Shown piece after piece: positions 5,544-62,473 of a stretch of 64,000 nt of DNA. The stretch is from Squalus acanthias (Eukaryota): NCBI GenBank assembly GCA_030390025.1, contig CM059432.1, forward strand, positions 2,356,001 to 2,420,000. Direction: 5' to 3'. Every line of letters begins with the position of its first letter. The stretch's first letter is position 1. The position numbers and the translations under genes were made by a program. The notes under the pieces were generated by a model. That model was not told where the DNA came from and searched no databases. It saw nothing but the letters and a program-made list of their open reading frames with translations.

Positions 5544-6919
5544 CAATGTCCCCTTTAAGCTGCGCGGCCATGTAGTGCTCCCGGGGTCCGGCTCTCCCGG
5601 GGTCCGGCGCTCCCAGGGTCCGGCCCTCCCGGGGTCCGGCGCTCCCGGGGTCCGGCTCTCCCGGGGTCCGGCGCTCCCAGGGTCCGGCTCTCCCGGGGTC
5701 CGGCGCTCCCGGGGTCCGGCTCTCTCGGGGTCCGGCTCTCCCGGGGTCTGGCGCTCTCGGGGTCCGGCTCTCCCGGGGTCTGGCGCTCTCAGGGTCCGGC
5801 TCTCCCGGGGTCCGGCTCTCCCGGGGTCCGGCTCTCCCGGGGTCCGGCTCTCCCGGGGTCCGGCGCTCTCGGGGTCAGGCTCTCCCGGGGTCCGGCGCTC
5901 CAGGGTTCAGGCGCTCTCGGGGTCCGGCTCTCCCGGGGTCCGGCTCTCTCGGGGTCCGGCTCTCTCGGGGTCTGGCTCTCCCGGGGTCCGGCGCTCTCGG
6001 GGTCCGGCGCTCTCGGGGTCCGGCTCTCCCGGGGTCCGGCGCTCTCGGTGTCCGGCGCTCTCGGGGTCCGGCGCTCTCGGGGTCCGGCGCTCTCGGGGTC
6101 TGGCGCTCCCGGGGTCCGGCGCTCCCGGGGTCCGGCTCTCCCGGGGTCCGGCGCTCCCGGGGTCCGGCTCTCCCGGGGTCCGGCTCTCCCGGGGTCCGGC
6201 GCTCCCGGGGTCCGGCTCTCCCGGGGTCCGGCTCTCCCGGGGTCCGGCTCTCCCGGGGTCCGGTTCTCCCGGGGTCCGGCGCTCTCGGGGTCCGGCTCTC
6301 CCGGGGTCCGGCTCTCCCGGGGTCCTGATCTCCCGTGGTCCGGCGCTCCCGGGGTCCGGCTCTCCCGGGGTCCGGCGCTCTCGGGGTCCGGCTCTCCCGG
6401 GGTCCGGCGCTGCCGGGGTCCGGCTCTCTCGGGGTCCGGCGCTCTCGGGGTCCGGCTCTCTCGGGGTCCGGCTCTCTCGGGGTCCGGCTCTCCCGGGGTC
6501 CGGCTCTCTCGGGGTCCGGCTCTCTCGGGGTCCGGCTCTCCCGGGGTCCGGCGCTCTCGGGATCCGGCTCTCTCGGGGTCCGGCGCACTCGGGGTCCGGC
6601 TCACTCGGGGTCCGGCGCACTCGGGGTCCGGCTCTCTCGGGGTCCGGCTCTCTGGGGGTCCGGCTCTCCCGGGGTCCGGCTCTCTCGGGGTCCGGCTCTC
6701 TCGGGGTCCGGCTCTCCCGGGGTCCAGCGCTCTCGGGATCCGGCTCTCTCGGGGTCCGGCGCTCTCGGGGTCCGACGCTCTCGGGGTCCGGCTCTCCAGG
6801 GGTCCGGCTCTCCCGGGGTCCGGCTCTCCCGGGGTCCGACGCAGGTGGTGAGCCGGCTGTTAAATTGAAACAAACGCGGACTTTTGAATGGGCCGTGCAA
6901 AAAAATTACGGGAACACTA
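5544..6919. mobile_element. hAT-type non-autonomous element (MITE) containing an expanded minisatellite
   Basis: Ends CAATGTCCCCTTTAA / TTACGGGAACACTA; degenerate 8-bp TSD ATCATAGA/ATCATGGC; non-repeat parts align with the inverted copy at 7442-7609. Confidence 0.75.
5577..6838. repeat. 16-bp GC-rich minisatellite GGGGTCCGGC(T/G)CTC(C/T)C, about 79 copies
   Basis: Directly visible; the 16-aa periodicity of the overlapping ORFs equals three units. Confidence 0.97.
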
Positions 6920-11947: not shown

Positions 11948-12894
11948 ATGGAGCAGGTGATGTGTTACTGTTGCGAGATGTGGGAGCCGGTGGACCCCAT
12001 TAAGGCTCACGGTGATTACGTCTGTGACAAGTGTCTGCTGCTACAGGAACTCCAGCTCCGTGTTGATGAGCTGGAGTCTGAGCTTCAGACACTGCGACAC
12101 ATCAGGGAGGGGGAGAAGTACCTGGACTCTGTGTTTCAGGAGGTGGTCACACCTATGAAGTTAATTAATTCAGATGTAGCCCATGGTCAGGGACAGGACG
12201 GTGTGATTACGAGTGAGGCAGGTACGGGGATCCAGGAGGTAGTGTTGGAGGAGCCGCAGCCCTTGCTCTTGTCCAACAGGTTCGAGGTTCTTACTCCCTG
12301 TGGGGACAGGAGCAGGGACTGCAGGGAGGATGAGCAACCTGGCCACTGCACCGTGGAACGGGGGGCCATTCAAGAGGGGGGAGTAAATAGAAATGTTGTA
12401 GTGGTAGGGGATAGTATTATTAGGGGGATAGATAGAGTTCTCTGCAGCCGAGAGCGAGAGTCCCGTAGGCTGTGTTGCCTGCCCGGTGCCAGGGTTAAGG
12501 ACATCTCCTCTGGGCTGGAAAGAAACTTGCAGTGGGAGGGGGTGGATCCAGTTGTCGTGGTCCATGTTGGTACGTAGATAGGACAAGGAAGCCGGTTCTG
12601 TTAAAGGAGTATGAGCAGCTAGGGGTCAAATTAAAAAACAGAACCTCAAGGGTAATAATCTCTGGATTATTACCTGAGCCACGAGCAAATTTGGCTAGGA
12701 CAAATAAAATTAGAGAGTTAAATGAGTGGCTCCAAGACTGGTGTTGGAGAAATGGGTTTTGCTTCCTGGGACACAGGCACCAGTACTGGGGCAGGAGGAA
12801 GCTGTTCCGTTGGGACGGGCTTCACTTGGCCAGTGCTGGGACTAGAGTCCTGGTGGATCATATAACTAGGGCTGTAGAGAGGGCTTTAAACTAA
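11948..12894 (+). pseudogene. CR1 ORF1: zinc finger, coiled coil and SGNH-esterase domain; frameshifted near 12575
   Basis: CYCC...CDKC; LQELQLRVDELESELQTL; VVVGDSIIRG, CLPGARV, VHVGT and DGLHL blocks. Confidence 0.9.
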
Positions 12895-12932
12895 CTAGTG
12901 GGGGGGAGGTTCCTAGAGAGCAAATAATAAAA

Positions 12933-15876
12933 ATGACAACAGAGAAGGTCATAGACTTAGGTAGCAGTGGGGAAATTAAAAACCAGAGTGTGTCAGGAAG
13001 GGGCAGAAGGTATGGAGTAAAAGGTAAAGTAATAAAAAGGGCAAAAGCAGGAACTAAGTGTCACAAAACATATTTGAAAGTTCTCTATCTGAATGCACGT
13101 AGCATTCGTAACAAAATAGACGAGTTAATGGCACAAATAACTACATATGGGTATGATCTTGTGGCCATTACAGAAACATGGCTGCAGGGTGACAATGCCT
13201 GGGAATTAAACATACCAGGTTATTTAACGATCAGGAAGGACAGGCAGGAAGGAAGGGGAGGTGGGGTGGCTATGTTAATAAAGGAAGGAATCACTGTAAT
13301 ACAGAGAAATGATATTGGGTCAAAAGATCAAGATAATGAAACAGTTTGGGTGGAGATAAGGAATAATAAGGGGAAAAAAACACTAGTGGGCGTAGTCCGC
13401 CGAACAGTTGCAACTCTGTTGGACGGAGTATCAATCAGGAAATAGTTGAGGCTTGTAATAAGGGAACATCTATAATTATGGGGGATTTTAACTATCATAT
13501 TAATTGGACAAATCAAATTGGGCAGGGCTGCCTTGAGGATGTGTTCATTGAGTGTATTAGGGATGGGTTTCTTGAGCAGTATGTAACTGAACCGACCAGG
13601 GGGCAAGCAACCTTTTATCTGGTCCTGTGTAACGAGACAGGATTAATTAAAAATGTCCTAGTAAAGGATCCCCTTGGAATGAGTGACCATAACATGGTTG
13701 AATTCCATATTCAATTAGCGGGTGAGAAGGTTGGATCTCAAACAAGCGTGCTAAGCTTGAATAAAGGAGACTATGAAGGTATGTGAGCGGAATTGAGTAG
13801 AGTGGATTGGGAAAATAGATTAAAGGGTAAGACGATACATGATCAGTGGTGTATATTTAAGGAGATATTTTACAACTTCCAAAAAATATATATTCCACTG
13901 AGAAGAAAAGGGTGTAAAAGAAAAGACAGTCATCCGTGGCTAAGTAAAGAAATTAAGGATAGTATTCGACTAAAAACAAGGGCTTATAAGGTAGCCAAAT
14001 CTAGTGGGAGGATAGAGGATTGGGAAAACTTTAAAAGACAGCAAAAAATAACAAAAAGATTGATTAAGAAAGGGAAGATAGATTATGAAAGTAAATTAGC
14101 AAAAAATATAAAAACAGATAGTAAGAGTTTTTATAGTTATATAAAAAGAAAAAGGGTGGCTAAAGTAAATGTTGGTCCCTTAGAAGATGAGACTGGGAAA
14201 TTAATGGTGGGAAATATGGAGATGGCAAATACACTGAATGAATATTTTGTATCAGTCTTTACAGTAGAGTACACTAAGAATATCCCAACACTGGACAAAC
14301 AGGGGGCTATAGGGAGGAGGAGCTAAACACAATCAAAATCACTAAAGAAGTGGTACTCGGTAAAATAACGGGACTCAAGGCGGATAAATCACCTGGACCT
14401 GATGGCTTACATCCTAGGGTCTTGAGGGAAGTGGCGGTAGGGATTGTGGATGCATTGGTAATAATTTTCCAAAACTCTCTGGACTCAGCAAAGATCCCGG
14501 CAGACTGGAAAACTGCTAATGTAACACCCTTATTTAAAAAGGGCAGTAGAAAAAAGGCTGGAAACTATAGACCGGTTAGCCTAACATCTGTGGTAGGTAA
14601 AATTTTGGAGTCCATTATTAAGGAGACAGTAACGGGACATTTGGATAATCATAATTTAATAGAACAAAGTCAGCATGGTTTTATGAAGGGGAAGTCATGT
14701 TTGACAAAATTGCTGGAGTTCTTTGAGGAAGTAACATACAGGGTGGATAAAGGGGAACCAGTGGATGTGGTGTATTTAGACTTCCAAAAGGCATTTGACA
14801 AGGTGCCACACAAAAGATTATTGCTTAAGATAAAAAATCACGGGATTGGGGGTAATATTCTGGCATGGATAGAGGATTGGCTATCTAACAGAAGGCAGAG
14901 AGTTGGGATAAATGGTTCATTCTCAGACTGGCAATCAGTAACTAGTGGTGTTCCGCAAGGGTCAGTGCTGGCTCCCCAACTCTTTACAATCTATATTAAC
15001 GATTTGGAGGAGGGGACCGAGTGTAACATATCAAAGTTTGCAGATGATACAAAGATGGGAGGGAAAGTAGTGAGTGAGGAGGACATAAAAAATCTGCAAG
15101 GGGACATAGACAGGCTAAGTAAGTGGGCAGAGATTTGGCAGATGGAATACAATACTGGAAAGTGTGAGGTTATGCACTTTGGCAGGAAAAATAGTAGAGC
15201 AAGTTATTATCTTAATGGCAAGAAACTGGAAAGTACTGAAGTACAAAGGGATCTGGGGGTCCTGGTGCACGAAACTCAAAAAGTTAGTATGCAGGTGCAG
15301 CAAGTGATTAAGAAGGCCAATGGAATGTTGGCTTTCATTGCTAGGGGGATAGAATATAAAAATAGGGAGGTATTGCTTCAGTTGTACAAGGTATTGGTGA
15401 GACCGCACCTGGAATACTGCATACAGTTTTGGTGTCCATACTTAAGAAAAGACATACTTGCTCTCGAGTCAGTACAAAGAAGGTTCACTCGGTTAATCCC
15501 GGGGATGAGGGGATGGACATATGAGGAGAGGTTGGGTAGATTGAGACTCTACTCATTGGAGTTCAGAAGAATGAGAGGCGATCTTATTGAAACATATAAG
15601 ATTGTGAAGGGGTTGGATCGGGTGGATGCGGGGAGGATGTTCCCGATGATGGGTGAAACTAGAACTAGGGGGCATAGTCTTAGAATAAGGGGCTGCTCTT
15701 TCAAAACTGAGATGAGAAGGAACTACTTCACTCAGAGGGTGGTAGGTCCATGGAATATGCTGCCCCAAAAAGCTGTAGAAGCTACATCATTACATAAATT
15801 TAAAACAGAAATAGACAGTTTCCTAGAAGTAAAGGGAATTAAGGGTTACGGGGAGCGGGCAGGAATTTGGACATGA
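12933..15876 (+). pseudogene. CR1 ORF2: APE endonuclease plus reverse transcriptase, broken by frameshifts and a stop
   Basis: YLNARSI, ITETWL, MGDFN and SDH (APE); KSPGPDG, NYRPVSLTS, QHGF, DFQKAFD, GVPQGS and FADD (RT); split over ORFs 12933, 13478, 13793 and 14350. Confidence 0.95.
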
Positions 15877-26907: not shown

Positions 26908-29160
26908 CTTCTTCTTAGGCAGTCCCTCGGAACCGAGGATGATTTGCTTCCACATTAAAAATGAGTTCTCAGGTGACTGATGAGTCCAATGCGGGACCTA
27001 CAGTCTCTGTCACAGGTGGGGCAGATGGTGGTTGAAGGGACGGGTGGGTGGGGTTCTTGGGTTGACGTGCGCTCCTTGCGCTGCCTGCGCTTGGCTTCCG
27101 CTTGCTCCCGGCGAAGAGACTCGAGGTGTTCGGCGCCTTCCCGAATGCTTCTCCTCCACTTTGTGCGGTCTTGGGCCAGGGATTCCCAGGTGTCGGTGGA
27201 GATGTTGCACTTTTTCAAGGAGGCTTTGAGGGTGTCCTTGAAGTGTTTCCTCTGCCCACCTGGGGCTCTCTTGTGGTGTCGGAGCTCCGAGTGGAGCGCT
27301 TCTTTTGGGACTCTTGTATCGGGCATGCGACGGTGTGACCCATCCATCGGAACTGATCGAGCGTGGTCAAAGCTTCGATGCTGGGGATGTTGGCCTCAGC
27401 GAGAACACTGACGTTGGTGCGCCTATCCTGCCAATGAATTTGCAGGATCTTGCGGAGGCAGCGTTGGTGGTACCTCTCCAGTGCTTTGAGGTGCCTGCTG
27501 TACATGGTCCATGTCTCTGAGGCATACAGGAGGGCGGGTATCACTACTGCTCTGTAGACCAGGAGCTTGGTGCCAGGTTTGAGGTCCTGGTCTTCAAACA
27601 CTCTCTTCCTCAGGCGACCGAAGGCTGCACTGGCACACTGAAGGCGGTGTTGGACTTCATCATCGATGTTTGTCCTTGTTGACAGTAGGCTCCCGAGGTA
27701 TGGAAAGTGGTCCACGTTGTCCAAGGCCTTGTCGTGGATTTTGATAATCGGGGGGCAGTACTGTGTGGCGGGGGCAGGTTGGTAGAGGACCTTTGTCTTA
27801 CGGATGTTTAGTGTAAGGCCCATGCTCTCGTACGCTTCGGTGAAGGGGTTGACGATGGTTTGGAGTTCGACCTCCGAGTGAGCGCAGACGCAAGCGTCAT
27901 CTGCATACTGTAATTCAATGACAGAGGATGGGACGACCTTGAATCTGGACTGGAGGCGACGGAGGTTGAACAGTTTCCCGTTTGTTCTGTAAATTAGCTC
28001 CACTCCAGCGGGGAGCTGACTGAGGGTGAGATGCAGCATTGTAGCAAGGAAGATCGAGAAGAGCATTGGTGCGATGACACAGCCTTGCTTGACCCCGGTC
28101 CGTACGTGAATTGGGTCTGTGGTGGATCCATTGGTCAGGATCACGGCTTGCATGTCATTGTGAAGCAGGCAGAGGATGGTGACAAACTTTTGAGGGCAGC
28201 CGAATTTGAGGAGGACACTCCATAATCCCTCACGGTTGACAGTGTCGAAGGCCTTTGTGAAGTCAATGAAGGCCATGTACAGCGGTTGGTGCTGTTCCCT
28301 GCATTTCTCTTGTAATTGACGCGTGGTGAAGATCATGTCCATTTTGCCCCTTAGCGACTCTGGGAGGAGCTCTTCAGCCACTGGGAGAAGGCAATTAAGG
28401 AGGATTCTTGCGATGACTTTCCCTGTGGCAGACAGCAGGGAAACTCCTCTGTAATTACCGGAATCGGACTTGTCACCTTTCTTAAAGATGGTCACAATTA
28501 CGGCATCTCTGAGATCCCCTGGCATGCTCTCCTCCTTCCAGATAAGAGAAATGAGTAAATGAATTTGCGCCAGTAGTGCTTCTCCGCCATGCTTTAGTGC
28601 CTCGGCGGGGATTTCATCTGCTCCTGAGGCCTTGTTGTTCTTCAGTTGTCGGATGGCCTTTTCAACCTCATGCCGGGCTGGGGTTGTGCTGAGATGGTGG
28701 CGGGTAGCATGCTGCGAGATGGAGTTGAGGACACTCGCGTCGAAGACAGAGTCTCAGTTAAGGAGATCTTTGAAGTGCTTCTTCCAGCGGGCACTGACTG
28801 CCTCTCTGTCCTTGATGAGTACCTCTCTGTTCTTGGCCCGCAGTGGGGTAGGGCCTTGGGTGCTTGGGCCGTAGGTGGTCTTGACTGCGCTAAAGAATCC
28901 ACGCACGTGGTGGTTGTCGACTAGCTGCTGGATCTCCTGCGCTTTCTCCACCCACCATCTGTTCTTTAGGTCGCGAGTTTTTTGTTGGACCTCGGCCTTC
29001 AGACGTCTGTAGAGCTGCTTTCCTGCTCTCGAGTTCTGTTGCTGTTTCCAGATCAGGAATGCCTTGCGCTTGCGGCTTATTAGCTCCTGGATCTCCTGGT
29101 CGTTCTCGTCAACCAGTCTTGGTGTTTCCTGGTCGAGTGACCGAGCGTCTCTTCACAGGT
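26908..29160 (-). mobile_element. RTE-clade LINE, 5'-truncated, RT domain present but frameshifted
   Basis: NYRGVSLLS, FIDFTKAFD, GVKQGC, LQYADD and FPYLGS motifs; C-terminal CPTCDRDC...HLRTH zinc finger; (AAG)n tail. Confidence 0.95.
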
Positions 29161-48734: not shown

Positions 48735-49915
48735 GTTTTTCGGATGGGGTAAGGTACACAGTGGTGTTCCCCAGGGGTCGGTTCTAGGACCACTGCTTTT
48801 CTTGATTATATATTAATAACTTGGACGTGGGTGTACAGGGCACAATTTCAAAATTTGCAGATGACACAAAACTTGGAAGTATAGTGAACAGTGAGGAGGA
48901 TAGTGATAGACTTCAAGAGGACATAGACAGGCTGGTGGAATGGGCAGACACGTGGCAGATGAAATTTAACACAGAAAAGTGTGAAGTGATACATTTTGGT
49001 AGAAAGAATGAGGAGAGGACATATAAACTAAAGGGTACAATCCTGAAGGGGGTGCACGAACAGAGAGACCTGGGGGTATATGTGCACAAATCGTTGAAGG
49101 TGGCAGGGCAGGTTGGGAAAGTAGTTAAAAAGGATTCAATAGTAACTTTCAAAAGGGAATTGGATAAATGCTTGAAAAGGGAAACATTTGCAGGGCTGTG
49201 GGGAAAGAGCGGGGGGGGGGGTAGAGTGGGACTAATTGGAGAGCTCGACCAAAGAGCCGGCACAGGCACGATGGGCCGAATGGCCTCCTCCTGTGCTGTG
49301 TGTATGATTCGAAAAGGCAAGCCTCACCGTGCTTCACTCCAAGCCATGTACGATCATAGTTGATGTGAGGATTTCTTGAGAGAAAAAGATTAGCTTGCAG
49401 GTTATGGAACTTGATCAAGCATAGCAACCCCAATAAAGACTTAACCTGGGGAAATCCTGCCACCTATTTTGCAGCTTTTATATGTGAAAATTGAAAATTG
49501 TATTTCAACTTTGAACAGAGGAGGCTGAGGGGAGATTTAATTGAGGTGTATAAAATTATGAGGGGCCGAGATAGAGTGGATAGGAAGGACCTATTTCCCT
49601 TAGCAGAGAGGTCAGTAACCAGCGGGCAGAGATTTAAAGTAACTGGTGGAAGGATTAGAGAGGGAGTTGAGGAGAACTTTCTTCACTCAGAGGGTGGTGG
49701 GGGTCTGGAACTCACTGCCTGAAAGGGCGGTCGAGGCAGAAACCCTCATCACATTTAAAAAGTACTTGGATATGCACTTGAAGCGCCGTAACCTGCAGGG
49801 CTACGGACCAAGAGCTGGAAAGTGGGATTAGGCTGGAGAGCTCTTTGTCAGCTGGCACAGACACGATGGGCCGAATGGCCTCCTTCTGTGCTGTAAATTT
49901 CTATGATTCTATGGA
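48735..49915 (+). mobile_element. CR1 fragments (internally deleted RT 48735-49310; 3' end 49500-49915)
   Basis: SGVPQGSVLGPLLF and KFADDTKLG...WQMKFNTEKCEVIHFG; 3' tails. Confidence 0.88.
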
Positions 49916-50352: not shown

Positions 50353-50477
50353 TTTTCCACAGGTAACGGGTCGATAGCCCGCAGATGAGTAACTGAAATT
50401 TACTAACTGGTTGTTTCATTTTTCATAGAATCATAGAATCATACAGCACAGAAGGAGGCCATTCGGCCCATCGTGCC

Positions 50478-50695: not shown

Positions 50696-50942
50696 TTCTT
50701 CCCGCCTGAAAGATTGGAAGTCCGGCGGCTTCCTTCTACTGAATTAGCCGGACTAAGAATAGACGCAGTCGTTTGGATCTCCGTTTGTGGCTGGAAGGCA
50801 CGTCTCCTCGGACTGTGTTTTGGTCCCTGGGTCGCTTGGTTCGTACCAGCGGGCTAGCAGAGTCCGTGTCGCCTTGATCGACCTGAGGGGGACTGGGGAG
50901 ATCGTGGCTCCGGGTGCGGGTCCCCACAGGCGCAGAGCTGGC

Positions 50943-52538
50943 TTAATCCTGCTCAGTAGCCGGTGATTGACCGGCGTCCTGGCTTCGGGTGGCCATCCCG
51001 CGGGGAGCGCTCTGTTCCCCGGGTTGATCCGGTGGAGTAGCTGGCAGATCCCTTGATGTCCCGGGTAGGGCGTCATCCTCGGAGGAGCGCGGAGTATCGG
51101 CGTTGTTAATACGGATCTCTCTATCGATTGGGTCCGTGGGACCGGTTGGGCAGGGAGCCAGATCCCGAAGTGAAACTGTGGACTCCTGGCCATCAGGGTA
51201 CCGCACGTACGCGTATGTAGGATTGACATCTGTTAGTTCCACCTCGTCGACGAGGGGATCACTCTTGGAGGAGCGGACGAATCTTCGGAGCAGCACGGAG
51301 CCAGGAGCTGCCAACCATGATGGTAGGGACGTCCCATGAGTGGAGCGATGCTGGAACCCGAAGAATCGTTCGTGAGGAGTAACATTGGTGGATGTAGAAA
51401 GAAGAGACCTGATGGAATGCAACGCGTCAGGGAGCATAGTTTCCCACTGCTGGTCTGGTAGATTGCGTGACCTCAGTGCAAGATGAACAGCGTTCCAAAT
51501 GATAGCGTTGTATCTCTCAACCTGCCCGTTTCCAATAGGATGATATGGTGTCGTTTTACTAGTGGTGATTCCCCGTTGGGAAAGATAACTTTTGAGTTCG
51601 CTTGACATGAAGGAGGGACCCCGATCAGAGTGGATGAAATTGGCCATACCGCAAAGGGAAAAGACATGATCGAGGCATTTGATCACTGTGGAAGTAAGCA
51701 TACTGGGACGGGGGAAAGCAAAGGGAAAGCGTGAATATTCGTCCACCATAGTAAGCAAGTAGGTGTTTCGCGTTGAGGAAGGCAATGGCCCTTTAAAGTC
51801 AATGCTGAGTCGCTGCATAGGCTGTGTAGCGTGTATGAGCGAGCCATCCGACGGACGGAAGAATTGCAGTTTTAATTCCGCGCAAATTCTATAAGTGGAG
51901 CATGTTCTTTTCACGTCTTCCGTAGAAAATGGGAGATTTTTAGATCGCACAAAGTGCAACATACGGGTAACGCCAGGATGGCATAAGTCAGTATGAAGAT
52001 CCGCAAGAGTCGAAGTTGACATGGAAGAGCAGAATGCACGCGTGAGGGTATCCGGGGCCACATTCTCCTTGCCGGGTCGATACTGTATGGTGTAGCCAAA
52101 GGCGGCCAATTCCATCCTCCAGAGCTGTATTTTGTTATTCTTGATTTTAGTGCGTTTCCTGTTATCCAGCATAAAGACCACCGAGCGCTGATCGGTTATG
52201 AGCGTGAAATGGCGACGAGCGAGAAAATGACTCCATTTACGTACTGCTTCGATGATCGCCGTAGCCTCCTTCTCGACAGGAGGATAATGGAGCTCGCTAC
52301 CCTGCAAAGTTCTAGACAGAAATGCAACGGGTTGACCGCCTTGATTCAAGGTAGCCGAGATCGCCACCTCCGATGCATCGCACTCGACCACGAAAGGGAG
52401 ATTTTCATCGATGGAATGAAGCACAGCTTTTTCCAGTTGTTGCTTGAGGACTTCGAAAGCTGAAATAGCCCTCGCCTCCAACGGAAATGACTTCGCGTGA
52501 AGCAGGGCTGGATCTTGTCGGAAAAGTGAGGTATCCAC
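50943..52538 (-). pseudogene. Gypsy pol: RNase H plus integrase
   Basis: ECDAS, EKEA, TDQ, HPG..C, IDFKGP, VDEYSRF, SDRG and GNGQVERYN motifs. Confidence 0.92.
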
Positions 52539-53240
52539 TTCGCATAATAGGCGAACATGCCGAGAGCCCGACGAAGAGAGCTGAGATTCGTAGGAGGAGG
52601 GAGCTTCTGAAGCGGACGAAGTCGCTCCAGATCCGGTTTGATGACACCATTGCCCACCCAGTAGCCAAGGATGTTGACTGATGGTACTGATTTCACAGAT
52701 TTGGACTCATTTAAGGTTAAGTTGCGACGACGGAGAACGTCAAGAAATTTCTGGAGGTTGGCATCATGCTCCTTCCGGTCATGACCAGCAATGGTGATAT
52801 TATCCAGATATGGAAAAGTGTCTGTTAAGTTCTCCTGTTTGACTAGGCTATCCATTGCCCGTTGAAAGACGGCCACCCCATTGGTGACCCCGAATGGAAG
52901 GCGACGAAACTGGTAAAGCCGACCATTGACCTCAAAAGCCGTATACTTTTTGTCAGAGTCCTTTAACAGTACTTGATGGTATGCACTCTTTAAGTCAAAA
53001 GTTGAAAATACCTTGTAGTTAGCAAGGTTATTGACCATGTCATCGATGCGTGGTAGTGGGTAGGCATCCAGGTCGGTATACTGGTTAATAGTTTGCGAGT
53101 AATCGATGCAAAGACGTTTCTTGTGTTGCTTCAGAGGATTTTTAACAACGACGACTTGAGCCCGCCAGGAAGATGAACATGGCTCAATGATACCGTCAGC
53201 TAGAAGGCGAGAGATCTCTGTCTCGATAAAGGATAGGTCA
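52490..53240 (-). pseudogene. Gypsy pol: reverse transcriptase (frameshifted)
   Basis: DLKSAYHQV, TAF, LPFGVTN, YLDN, ILGY and LRRALGMFAYY motifs. Confidence 0.92.
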
Positions 53241-54575
53241 TCTTGGCTGAACGTCGTGATTTAGTGGCTATGGGCTTACATCGGGGGAAAAGATTGGCAA
53301 AAAAGGAGGGCTCGTCGAGCGAAGCTGCCGAAAGTGCACAAAACGGTACTTTGGAAATAGTAAGCTCCGGCTTTGATCCTCCAAACTCGAAAGTGAGTCT
53401 TTTGTGTTGTTTCTGGAAATCCTGTCCCAGGAGCACATCACTGCATAGGTTTTTGAGCACCCCGAGCCGGGTAGAGAAATAAGTGCGGCCATTGAGAATA
53501 AGGTCGACAAGACAAAAGCCGAAAGAGTTAGTGGTCAGTGTCGTCAGAGCCATTGCAATTTCCCTGTCCAAGGGGTAAATACGCAGTTTTAACTTACTGA
53601 CAGCCTGCTCACTGATGAAGCTGTCAGAGCTGCATGAGTCGATTAATGCATTCAAAATGTGTCCATTTACCGAAACCTTCATGGCTGCATGGGACAGGCT
53701 TTGGGGAAAAACAGCTGTGATGGGAGGAGGGGCAGTTTTACCCTTGACAGCTGTAGCATTAGTAGTGGCTCTTGGGGGAGGAGCAGTTTTATAGGGAGCA
53801 GCTGTAACCCTAGAAGAGGCTCTTGACTGACATACTTTCGAGAAGTGGCCTTTCTTACTGCAATGATTGCAGGTTGCATTACGAGCAGGACAAAATTTCC
53901 TATAATGAAATGCACCTCCACAGAAGAAACACTTCCTTTTAGATTGCCAAGATGCCGCTAGGATAGAGTCGTCATTAGTGAGGGCTTCCACCTGAGGCTT
54001 ATCGGAGGAGTCACTAAAAGTGATAGCAGCAGTCCGTGCACGTGGTAAAAGATAGGCATCTGCATTTTTTTTGCCAAGTCCAGAGAATATGCCTGGTCAT
54101 AGGCAGCTTGTAACTCGAGGGTTTTATTCTCCAGCAGACGCTGGCGTATGAAGGGAGACGCAATTCCATTAATAAAAGAATCACGAATTAACTCCTCCTG
54201 GTACTGCTCAGCTGAGACAGCCTTGAGATTACAATCTTTGCTGAGCCTGCGAAGCTTGTGAAGGAATTCGTCAAGTGATACCCCGGGTTGTTGTCGAGTT
54301 GTGGCCAGTCGATGCCGAGCAAAAATTTCGTTTGGGGCCTTAACATATAGTTGCTGTAGTATTTGGATAGCGGAGTCATAGTTTACACAGTCTTCGATAT
54401 AGTCAAACACATAAGGGGATACATAATTGGCAAGTATCTCTAACTTATCAGGAACATTCTCACCACACACCCTGAGGAAGTTGCTGAAGGTACGATACCA
54501 GTGTTTCCATACCTTAGCAGTTGTAGGTGAATTCGGTTCCAGGTCAAGATGGGTGGGTTGGAGTAGTTTCTCCAT
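53200..54575 (-). pseudogene. Gypsy gag (two CCHC-like knuckles) plus protease, frameshifted near 54065
   Basis: WKHW..F, ARHRLATTRQQPG.SLDEF, IRDSFINGI, CFFCGG..H....C, CNHCSKKGHFSKVC and ALIDS motifs. Confidence 0.9.
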
Positions 54576-54676
54576 GATGGATTGATTACTACGTCCGGTT
54601 CCTTTCTACCGTTTGAGTCGTAGCTGTCTGTTCCCAAAACCACTCAGAGCGTGGAGCAGGTCCCAGTTGATTAAAT

Positions 54677-54878
54677 TGACGTAAGAAAACTAAGCGTTAA
54701 ACAAAGCTTTAATCAACTGTTTTTCAACATGGAGGTCTAGTTGTGTCCTTCACTAGTTCCTGTTAAAGAATGTCCTGAGCAAGCTGGGCCCATGCCCGAG
54801 TATTTATACTCTCCCTGGACAGCACCACCAGCAGGCCGCCCAGTATTACTTCATACATGAATGACAAGATTCATGTCA
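54677..54878 (-). repeat. 5' LTR (202 bp)
   Basis: Minus-strand TATAAATA (~54801-54808) and ATTAAA (54708-54713); 16 bp shorter than the 3' LTR. Confidence 0.95.
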
Positions 54879-55309
54879 GTGCCTGTGCCGGCTCTTTGAA
54901 AGAGCTCTCCAATTAGTCCCACTCCCCCTGCTCTTTCCCCACAGCCCTGCAAAATTTTCCCCTTCCAGTATTTATCCAATTCCCCTTTTGAAAGTTACTA
55001 TTGAATCTGCTCCCACCGCCCTTTCAGGCAGCGCATTCCAGATCACAACAACTCGCTGCGTTAAAACATTCTCCTCTGGTTTTTTATCAATTACCTATTC
55101 TGTTAAATATACATCTAATCAATTAGCCAATAACTTCAGGTTTGCATAATACATGAATTACGCTGTATAAACATATCTTTAATCATTAACTTCTGGAATA
55201 AACTAACCAGAAAAAAAATAATACTTATACTAACTTAAGCTTAGAAATCACTAACATGTTGACTGAGGCCAATCGAGTTGCTGAGCCCGATGCTCGAAAG
55301 GTCACTGTG

Positions 55310-61889: not shown

Positions 61890-62473
61890 AGCCGTGACTC
61901 AGTGGGCAGCACACTCGCCTCTGAGTCAGAAGGTCGTGGGTTCAAGTCCCACTCCAGAGACTTGAGCACAAAAATCCAGGCTGACTCTGCAGTACTGAGG
62001 GAGAGCCGCACTGTCGGAGGGGCAGTACTGAGGGAGAGCCGCACTGTCGGAGGGGCAGTCCTGAGGGAGGGCCGCACTGTCGGAAGGGCAGTACTGAGGG
62101 AGTGCTGCATTGTTGGAGGGGCAGTACTGAGGGAGCGCTGCATTGTCGGAGGGGCAGTACTGAGGGAGTGCTGCATTGTTGGAGGGGCAGTACTGAGGGA
62201 GTGCCGCACTGTCGGAGGTGGACGTAAAAGATCCCATGGCACTATTTTGAAGAAGAGCAGGGGAGTTATCCCCTCAATCAACATCACTAAAAACAGATTA
62301 TTTGGTCATTTATCGCATTGCTGTTCGTGGGATCTTGCTGTGCGCAAATTGGTTGCCGTGTTTCCTACATTACAACAGTGACTCCACTTCAAAAAGTACT
62401 CCATTGGCTGTAAAGCCCTTTGGGGCATCCTAAGGTGGTGAAAGGCGCTACAGAAATGCGAGTTCTTTCTTTC
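61890..62473 (+). mobile_element. Deu-domain SINE with 7 copies of the 33-bp unit (61989-62218) and internal deletions
   Basis: Head and tail match the consensus; the array unit is the same as at 37383-38076. Confidence 0.9.

Follow-up and report, generated by a model that had tools for sequence, protein, structure and literature searches.

A Gypsy element and its primer site

A stretch of 64,000 nucleotides (nt) of Squalus acanthias DNA (contig CM059432.1 of assembly GCA_030390025.1, positions 2,356,001 to 2,420,000 of the forward strand; hereafter the window) carries a decayed Ty3/Gypsy long terminal repeat (LTR) retrotransposon, identified as such by its LTRs, target-site duplication, polypurine tract and domain order. 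The 5' LTR of this element is followed by a primer site complementary to a segment of the LTR itself, and the conservation and the probable role of this site are the subject of the present analysis. All parts of the element lie on the minus strand. The 5' LTR (54878-54677; 202 nt, TG...CA, 3' terminus TTACGTCA) shows 9 mismatches over 202 aligned nt with the 3' LTR (50695-50478; 218 nt). The LTR ends are set independently by the 3' LTR, by the 5-bp target-site duplication GGCAC, identical on the 5' side (54879-54883) and the 3' side (50473-50477), and by the polypurine tract region (50696-50710). A stretch of 16 nt of the unique 5' region (U5) present in the 3' LTR and in sibling contigs is missing from the 5' LTR of the window.

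The domain order is gag, protease, reverse transcriptase, RNase H, then integrase, spread over four frame pieces. The gag N-terminal piece (53958-54575) begins with an ATG at 54575 and its frame is broken ahead of the zinc knuckles; the second piece (53200-54096) holds two zinc knuckles and the aspartyl protease, the third (52346-53260) the reverse transcriptase (RVT_1, 1e-26; best solved-structure match Ty3 reverse transcriptase, 1.2e-35) and the fourth (50943-52706) RNase H and integrase without a chromodomain. As the coding region is split in this manner, the window copy is dead. Upstream of the primer site, the 5' LTR carries the GC-box-like hexamer GGGCGG (54836-54841) and a candidate TATA box TATAAATA (54808-54801), the position of which is not conserved across the lineage.

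The original prediction, made from the sequence of the window, held that the element lacks a transfer RNA (tRNA) primer-binding site (PBS) and that the 12-mer following the LTR and one A is the exact complement of the LTR segment at 54708-54719. An inverted-repeat search confirmed this arrangement: the 1-nt spacer (A, 54676) is followed at the PBS position by the 12-mer TTTAATCAACTG (54675-54664), without TGG at its 5' end, which is the exact reverse complement of the LTR arm CAGTTGATTAAA (54719-54708) over 12 nt (100%), with 32 nt between the arms. This loop is shorter than that of the family because of the missing 16 nt of U5. The 3' end of the arm, a candidate self-primer, is directed at the LTR boundary with primer-like polarity, and its final six bases, ATTAAA (54713-54708), form a candidate polyadenylation (poly(A)) signal. 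The TATA box that had been placed about 80 nt upstream of the pairing segment was found 81 nt upstream of it in the window copy. The same arm recurs in the 3' LTR (50536-50525) with no PBS partner downstream. A TGG begins only at base 11 of the 12-mer, and the bases following it vary among siblings.

Sibling copies were surveyed in contigs of four of the 21 sequencing runs listed, aligned to 54480-54960 at 80% likeness. Of 50 variant rows, the 40 listed include none within either arm, the positions 54658-54663, 54705 and 54724 being variable. In one contig of run X1, 37 nt between the arms are skipped (window 54673-54711), as would result from a hairpin-mediated deletion.

A single 12-mer of this kind is weak evidence by itself, since other perfect inverted pairs of 12-13 nt exist within the same 8 kb and the fold of the 181-nt leader is not unusual against shuffled sequences (z = -0.96). 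The case consequently rests on the position of the pair and on its conservation among relatives.

Conservation and covariation among relatives

A search with Gag returned 230 proteins, of which 120 were listed; the hosts named among the matches listed include crustaceans, cnidarians, molluscs and echinoderms. The Gag of the window was aligned with 24 homologues, leading to 237 metagenome stretches, the best 80 of which were analysed. These 80 loci and the window were grouped into 37 clusters at 88% Gag identity. For each locus the first 12 nt after the terminal CA plus one base were scored against any arm lying 20-110 nt upstream, each cluster being represented by its best member; the register of L005 was moved by one base by hand. 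No relatives were found in viral contigs, which yielded only 70 pattern matches.

The same geometry with a score of at least 11.5/12 was observed in 27 of the 37 clusters and in 0 of 192 shuffles, and 25 of these 27 are fully Watson-Crick, the other two having one G-U pair. At a score of at least 10.5/12 the figures are 60 of the 80 loci and 2 of the 192 shuffles. Thus, a chance match of the 12-mer was rejected, and the self-complementary primer site is real and lineage-wide. Ten clusters are omitted from later counts: L002, L009 and L014, with only 36-118 nt of upstream sequence; L045, L047/49 and L051/53, in which no such LTR end was seen; L046 and L062, with the same geometry at 10/12; L068/72/75, which resemble L077 with a shorter site; and L074, which scores 10.5 with a different loop. 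L002 and L014 show a CA..TGG pattern upstream, which may or may not lie at an LTR end.

The 27 representatives are diverse (Gag identity 33-84%, median 49%) and carry 22 distinct 12-nt arms. The 1-nt spacer is fixed in length and is A in 26 of the 27 clusters and G in one; the loop between arm and PBS measures 23-71 nt and the ungapped duplex 12-20 bp counting G-U pairs. The primer-like polarity noted for the window holds throughout, the arm 3' end facing the base one nt past the LTR end in 27/27 clusters. TGG is found within 5 nt of the LTR end in none of the 27, so that a TGG-type (tRNA) PBS was rejected and the siblings, as the original prediction implied, share its absence. When the LTR ends of 27 loci were compared with the 3' LTRs, exact agreement was seen for 11, from three clusters and the window, and agreement within 7 nt for 10 more; in the remaining loci the copy is truncated or the duplex broken.

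The complementarity is maintained by compensatory changes, as had been anticipated. Relative to the commonest pair, 62 of the 264 cells in the 22 distinct arms carry two-sided changes, and when arms and primer sites were swapped between families the observed pairing was reached in 0 of 5000 permutations. The permutation measures specificity and not frequency of pairing, because positions 1-12 had been selected. Of the 88 cells at the unselected positions 13-16, 65 are paired, a number that none of 5000 permutations reached, the permuted mean being 39.0; positions 17-24 are paired in 47 of 176 cells (permuted mean 46.9), which is background. As pairing drops to background beyond it, the duplex has an edge near position 16, as a short primer would give, and is bounded at about 12-19 bp. 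Gapped spans of the duplex lengthen by chance, and primer length was not judged from them. In L007 and L041, pairing resumes beyond a bulge of one base, with matching changes particular to each family, and here the duplex may exceed the ungapped count. In one copy of a young family, L029, the arm is altered in both LTRs together with the facing PBS base, the two-sided change that recopying of the PBS from the primer would produce.

Two further features of the arm recur. Arm positions 11-9 counted from the 3' end are initiator-like (A in 19, G in 24 and T in 21 of the 27 clusters), the initiator motif TCAKTY being named in PMC3601003. A hairpin following the arm is often conserved: the four bases with which the loop begins, next to the arm, are predicted to pair in a hairpin in 17 of the 27 clusters, against 5.4 expected, and the shortened copy of the window is not among these 17. 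The arms of L006, L013, L026 and L028 are, as judged by eye, near-palindromic when G-U pairs are allowed, which could offer a dimer contact but is not general to the lineage.

Models of priming

A primer site that matches the LTR of its own element, with changes on both sides, suggests that the group primes from its own cut RNA, and self-priming of the lineage, in one geometry or another, is regarded as highly probable. The PBS is complementary to the own LTR over at least 10 nt with primer polarity, the feature by which self-priming is predicted in the Tf1/Sushi group (PMC6317226), and an RNase H domain was found in the element by profile search, with a predicted role in cleavage. A tRNA primer is very unlikely for this lineage judging from the absence of TGG, the lineage-wide geometry, the 22 arms, the two-sided changes and the bounded pairing.

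The favoured model, to which we give slightly better than an even chance, is self-priming as in Tf1 with a short primer. In Tf1 the transcript's first 11 bases anneal to the PBS, and cleavage by RNase H falls between bases 11 and 12 (PMC7175516). By analogy, the transcript that is replicated would begin at the arm or close to it, the arm would fold back onto the primer site, and the RNase H of the element would cleave behind the final A at the arm 3' end; the short arm so released would prime minus-strand DNA. The geometry would be that of Tf1, the primer being somewhat longer. A start at the arm is in keeping with the edge of the duplex, with the initiator-like AGT and with the scarcity of TATA-like sites in the lineage. 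For arms ending in AATAAA or ATTAAA, the poly(A) signal of the 5' LTR, though not that of the 3' copy, would be concealed by the duplex as well, likely as a side benefit in part of the lineage.

Several observations weigh against this model. Pairing regularly exceeds 11 nt and reaches T-rich bases that are unusual as start sites, and the GC box and canonical TATA box of the window family would put the transcript start about 57 nt upstream of the arm. The ten omitted clusters out of 37 fell below the cut-off, being truncated, degenerate or without an LTR, and the relatedness of clusters was handled by clustering alone, with identical arms collapsed. In L037/L040 the arm is altered in the LTRs and the PBS is unchanged, and when position 14 was examined in their family (L034), a tree test of whether the PBS is recopied gave no supported branch.

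The overlap with the poly(A) signal had been proposed as a second role of the same fold, masking premature polyadenylation in the 5' LTR. The pairing underlying this proposal is borne out by prediction: the median unpaired probability of the last six arm bases is 0.04 with the PBS and 0.43 without it, and that of the window hexamer is 0.01 in the 5' context and 0.52 in the 3' LTR. Its generality is not, for the arm ends in AATAAA in 6 and ATTAAA in 9 clusters, that is in 15 of the 27, with an overlap in one more. The arm end is non-canonical in 11 clusters; the loop of three of them contains a canonical signal, and the other eight lack one in the arm, the loop and the 100 nt upstream. A canonical signal as an obligatory part of the arm was accordingly rejected, and masking is plausible for part of the lineage but not as a general function. 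The arms of L059, L061, L062 and L077 do not end in TAAA and are yet matched by primer sites (in L062 with two mismatches), so that the duplex does not depend on the hexamer.

An internal arm as the self-primer, the geometry put forward in the original prediction, is a possible but less than even prospect, rated as rather unlikely. Here the transcript would begin about 30 nt past the TATA box and some 55-60 nt upstream of the arm, the duplex would hide the 5' poly(A) signal, and the primer would be long or trimmed twice. The canonical TATAAATA and the upstream GC box of the window family are consistent with this model, as are the hexamers at or overlapping the arm end, the predicted burial of the window hexamer in its 5' context, and pairing beyond 11 nt into T-rich bases. 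The 30 nt before the arm are A-poor, the sequence 20-50 nt upstream of it is A-poor and T-rich, and a canonical signal lies in the loop in 3 of the 11 clusters with a non-canonical arm end against 1 of the 16 others, these being small numbers. On the other hand, TATA-like sites were found in only 6 of the 27 clusters and in two of these lie outside the LTR; their distances are scattered from 74 to 174 nt, and a TATA spacing common to the lineage was rejected. The eight clusters with no canonical hexamer nearby fit poorly, and complementarity ends near position 16: by analogy with retroviruses, a long primer should leave an unmatched plus-strand end and hinder second-strand transfer. The fuller proposal, in which an internal arm of the repeat (R) region serves as both poly(A) signal and primer in a widespread non-chromovirus animal Gypsy lineage, with a geometry unlike that of Tf1 and an independent origin of tRNA-free priming, is doubtful and a shade less probable again. 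If it were true, a single duplex would keep 5' polyadenylation in check and, once cleaved, serve to prime the minus strand. Starts of the short-primer and internal kinds could also coexist, since the alternative transcript starts of Tf2 include or exclude the self-primer (PMC5341516).

Explanations other than these two are together accorded a small probability. That the duplex is purely regulatory, blocking 5' polyadenylation or organising the leader near the Gag start while another primer is used, has little chance of being correct: a poly(A)-like hexamer overlaps in more than half of the clusters and the PBS arm abuts the Gag ATG in several families, but the arm 3' end lies in all 27 where a primer must end and no alternative PBS is present. 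Still less credible is pairing of the PBS with the arm copy at the RNA 3' end or on a second RNA, where a cut would give the primer. The same arm does occur in the 3' LTR, and pairing beyond 11 nt demands no specific start site on this account; however, first-strand transfer needs the repeat that such a cut would take away, so that a second RNA would have to supply it, and a local 5' fold is predicted (unpaired probability 0.01-0.09). Priming by a host tRNA half or fragment with an incidental LTR match, as known for half-tRNAs in some Copia lineages (PMC6317226), is strongly disfavoured and the least probable of all, for each of the 22 primer-site sequences finds its match in the LTR of the same element, with changes on both sides, and no Rfam match was found over the element. 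ARAGORN detected no tRNA genes in the 64-kb window.

Known and predicted self-priming elements and other features of the window

To our knowledge, fission-yeast elements are the only ones in which self-priming has been demonstrated; predictions of it concern mainly chromoviruses and a single Copia lineage of plants. The present lineage is most likely a variant of this known mechanism, working like Tf1 by every sequence test available. It resembles Tf1 and Tf2 of Schizosaccharomyces pombe and Tj1 of S. japonicus in having no tRNA PBS and in a PBS that complements an LTR segment with primer polarity (PMC7175516, PMC4600332, PMC5341516). It differs in the extent of the duplex (12-20 bp with a loop of 23-71 nt, against a primer of the first 11 bases in Tf1) and in an arm with a TAAA-like end that is often a poly(A) hexamer.

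Self-priming is also predicted for the Tf1/Sushi chromoviruses, including vertebrate sushi, fungal Maggy, Skippy and Cft-1 and plant Tcn1, from PBS-LTR complementarity of at least 10 nt located 0-5 nt past the LTR (PMC6317226, PMC6934838). The window element shares this complementarity; unlike that group, its lineage has no chromodomain, a single open reading frame of about 1200 amino acids and twin zinc knuckles in Gag, and its hosts, among the matches listed, include crustaceans, cnidarians, molluscs and echinoderms. A chromodomain was detected in 0 of 8 intact polyproteins (E 0.1) and neither in the window copy nor in the Pfam lists of homologues, and the lineage was therefore not filed as a chromovirus. 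The Copia TAR lineage (Houba, Osr-1) provides another case of predicted self-priming outside the chromoviruses, in a different superfamily and in plants (PMC6317226).

The Cigr-1 clade or a MolGy clade, both of non-chromovirus animal Gypsy elements with a matching host range, are candidates for the placement of the lineage (PMC6238403, PMC8556966). Motif searches of the readable supplements of these two papers gave no match, and their main texts contain no mention of a PBS. The Atlas clusters matched represent generic Gag, the names of the homologues are uninformative for clade, and a PDB profile search with the element matched only the Ty3 protease and zinc knuckles. In size Cigr-1 is presumably similar, with a single open reading frame near 1200 amino acids and short LTRs. 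In the literature covered, subscription papers and Repbase notes being outside the coverage, no account was found of an animal Gypsy lineage outside the chromoviruses that self-primes.

A covarying self-complementary site in a chromodomain-less animal Gypsy lineage would extend tRNA-free priming to another branch, which is of interest for the proposal of PMC3601003 that priming by hairpins came first and priming by tRNAs late. Self-primed elements would be expected to escape tRNA-fragment control at the PBS and would be missed by PBS-based annotation. The 22 natural arm variants further offer rules (fixed spacer, TAAA end, following hairpin) on how RNase H chooses its cut.

The element is inserted in a high-copy host repeat, as its flanks (54879-54924 and 50440-50477) jointly match uninterrupted copies near 49224-49302. 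The summed contig depth over the LTR (54684-54853) is far above that over the primer site and gag (54480-54683) in 4/4 runs; this figure is not a copy number and may reflect many solo LTRs or non-autonomous derivatives. Elsewhere in the window, three long reverse-transcriptase frames (14278-15876, 27215-28753 and 43450-45390) and an endonuclease frame (12870-13445) are probably copies of long interspersed nuclear elements. Repeat arrays occupy 39983-43065, 5578-6838, 37383-38078 and 61989-62218, comprising a 3-kb TG-rich array, a 16-nt array and one 33-nt minisatellite unit present in two places.
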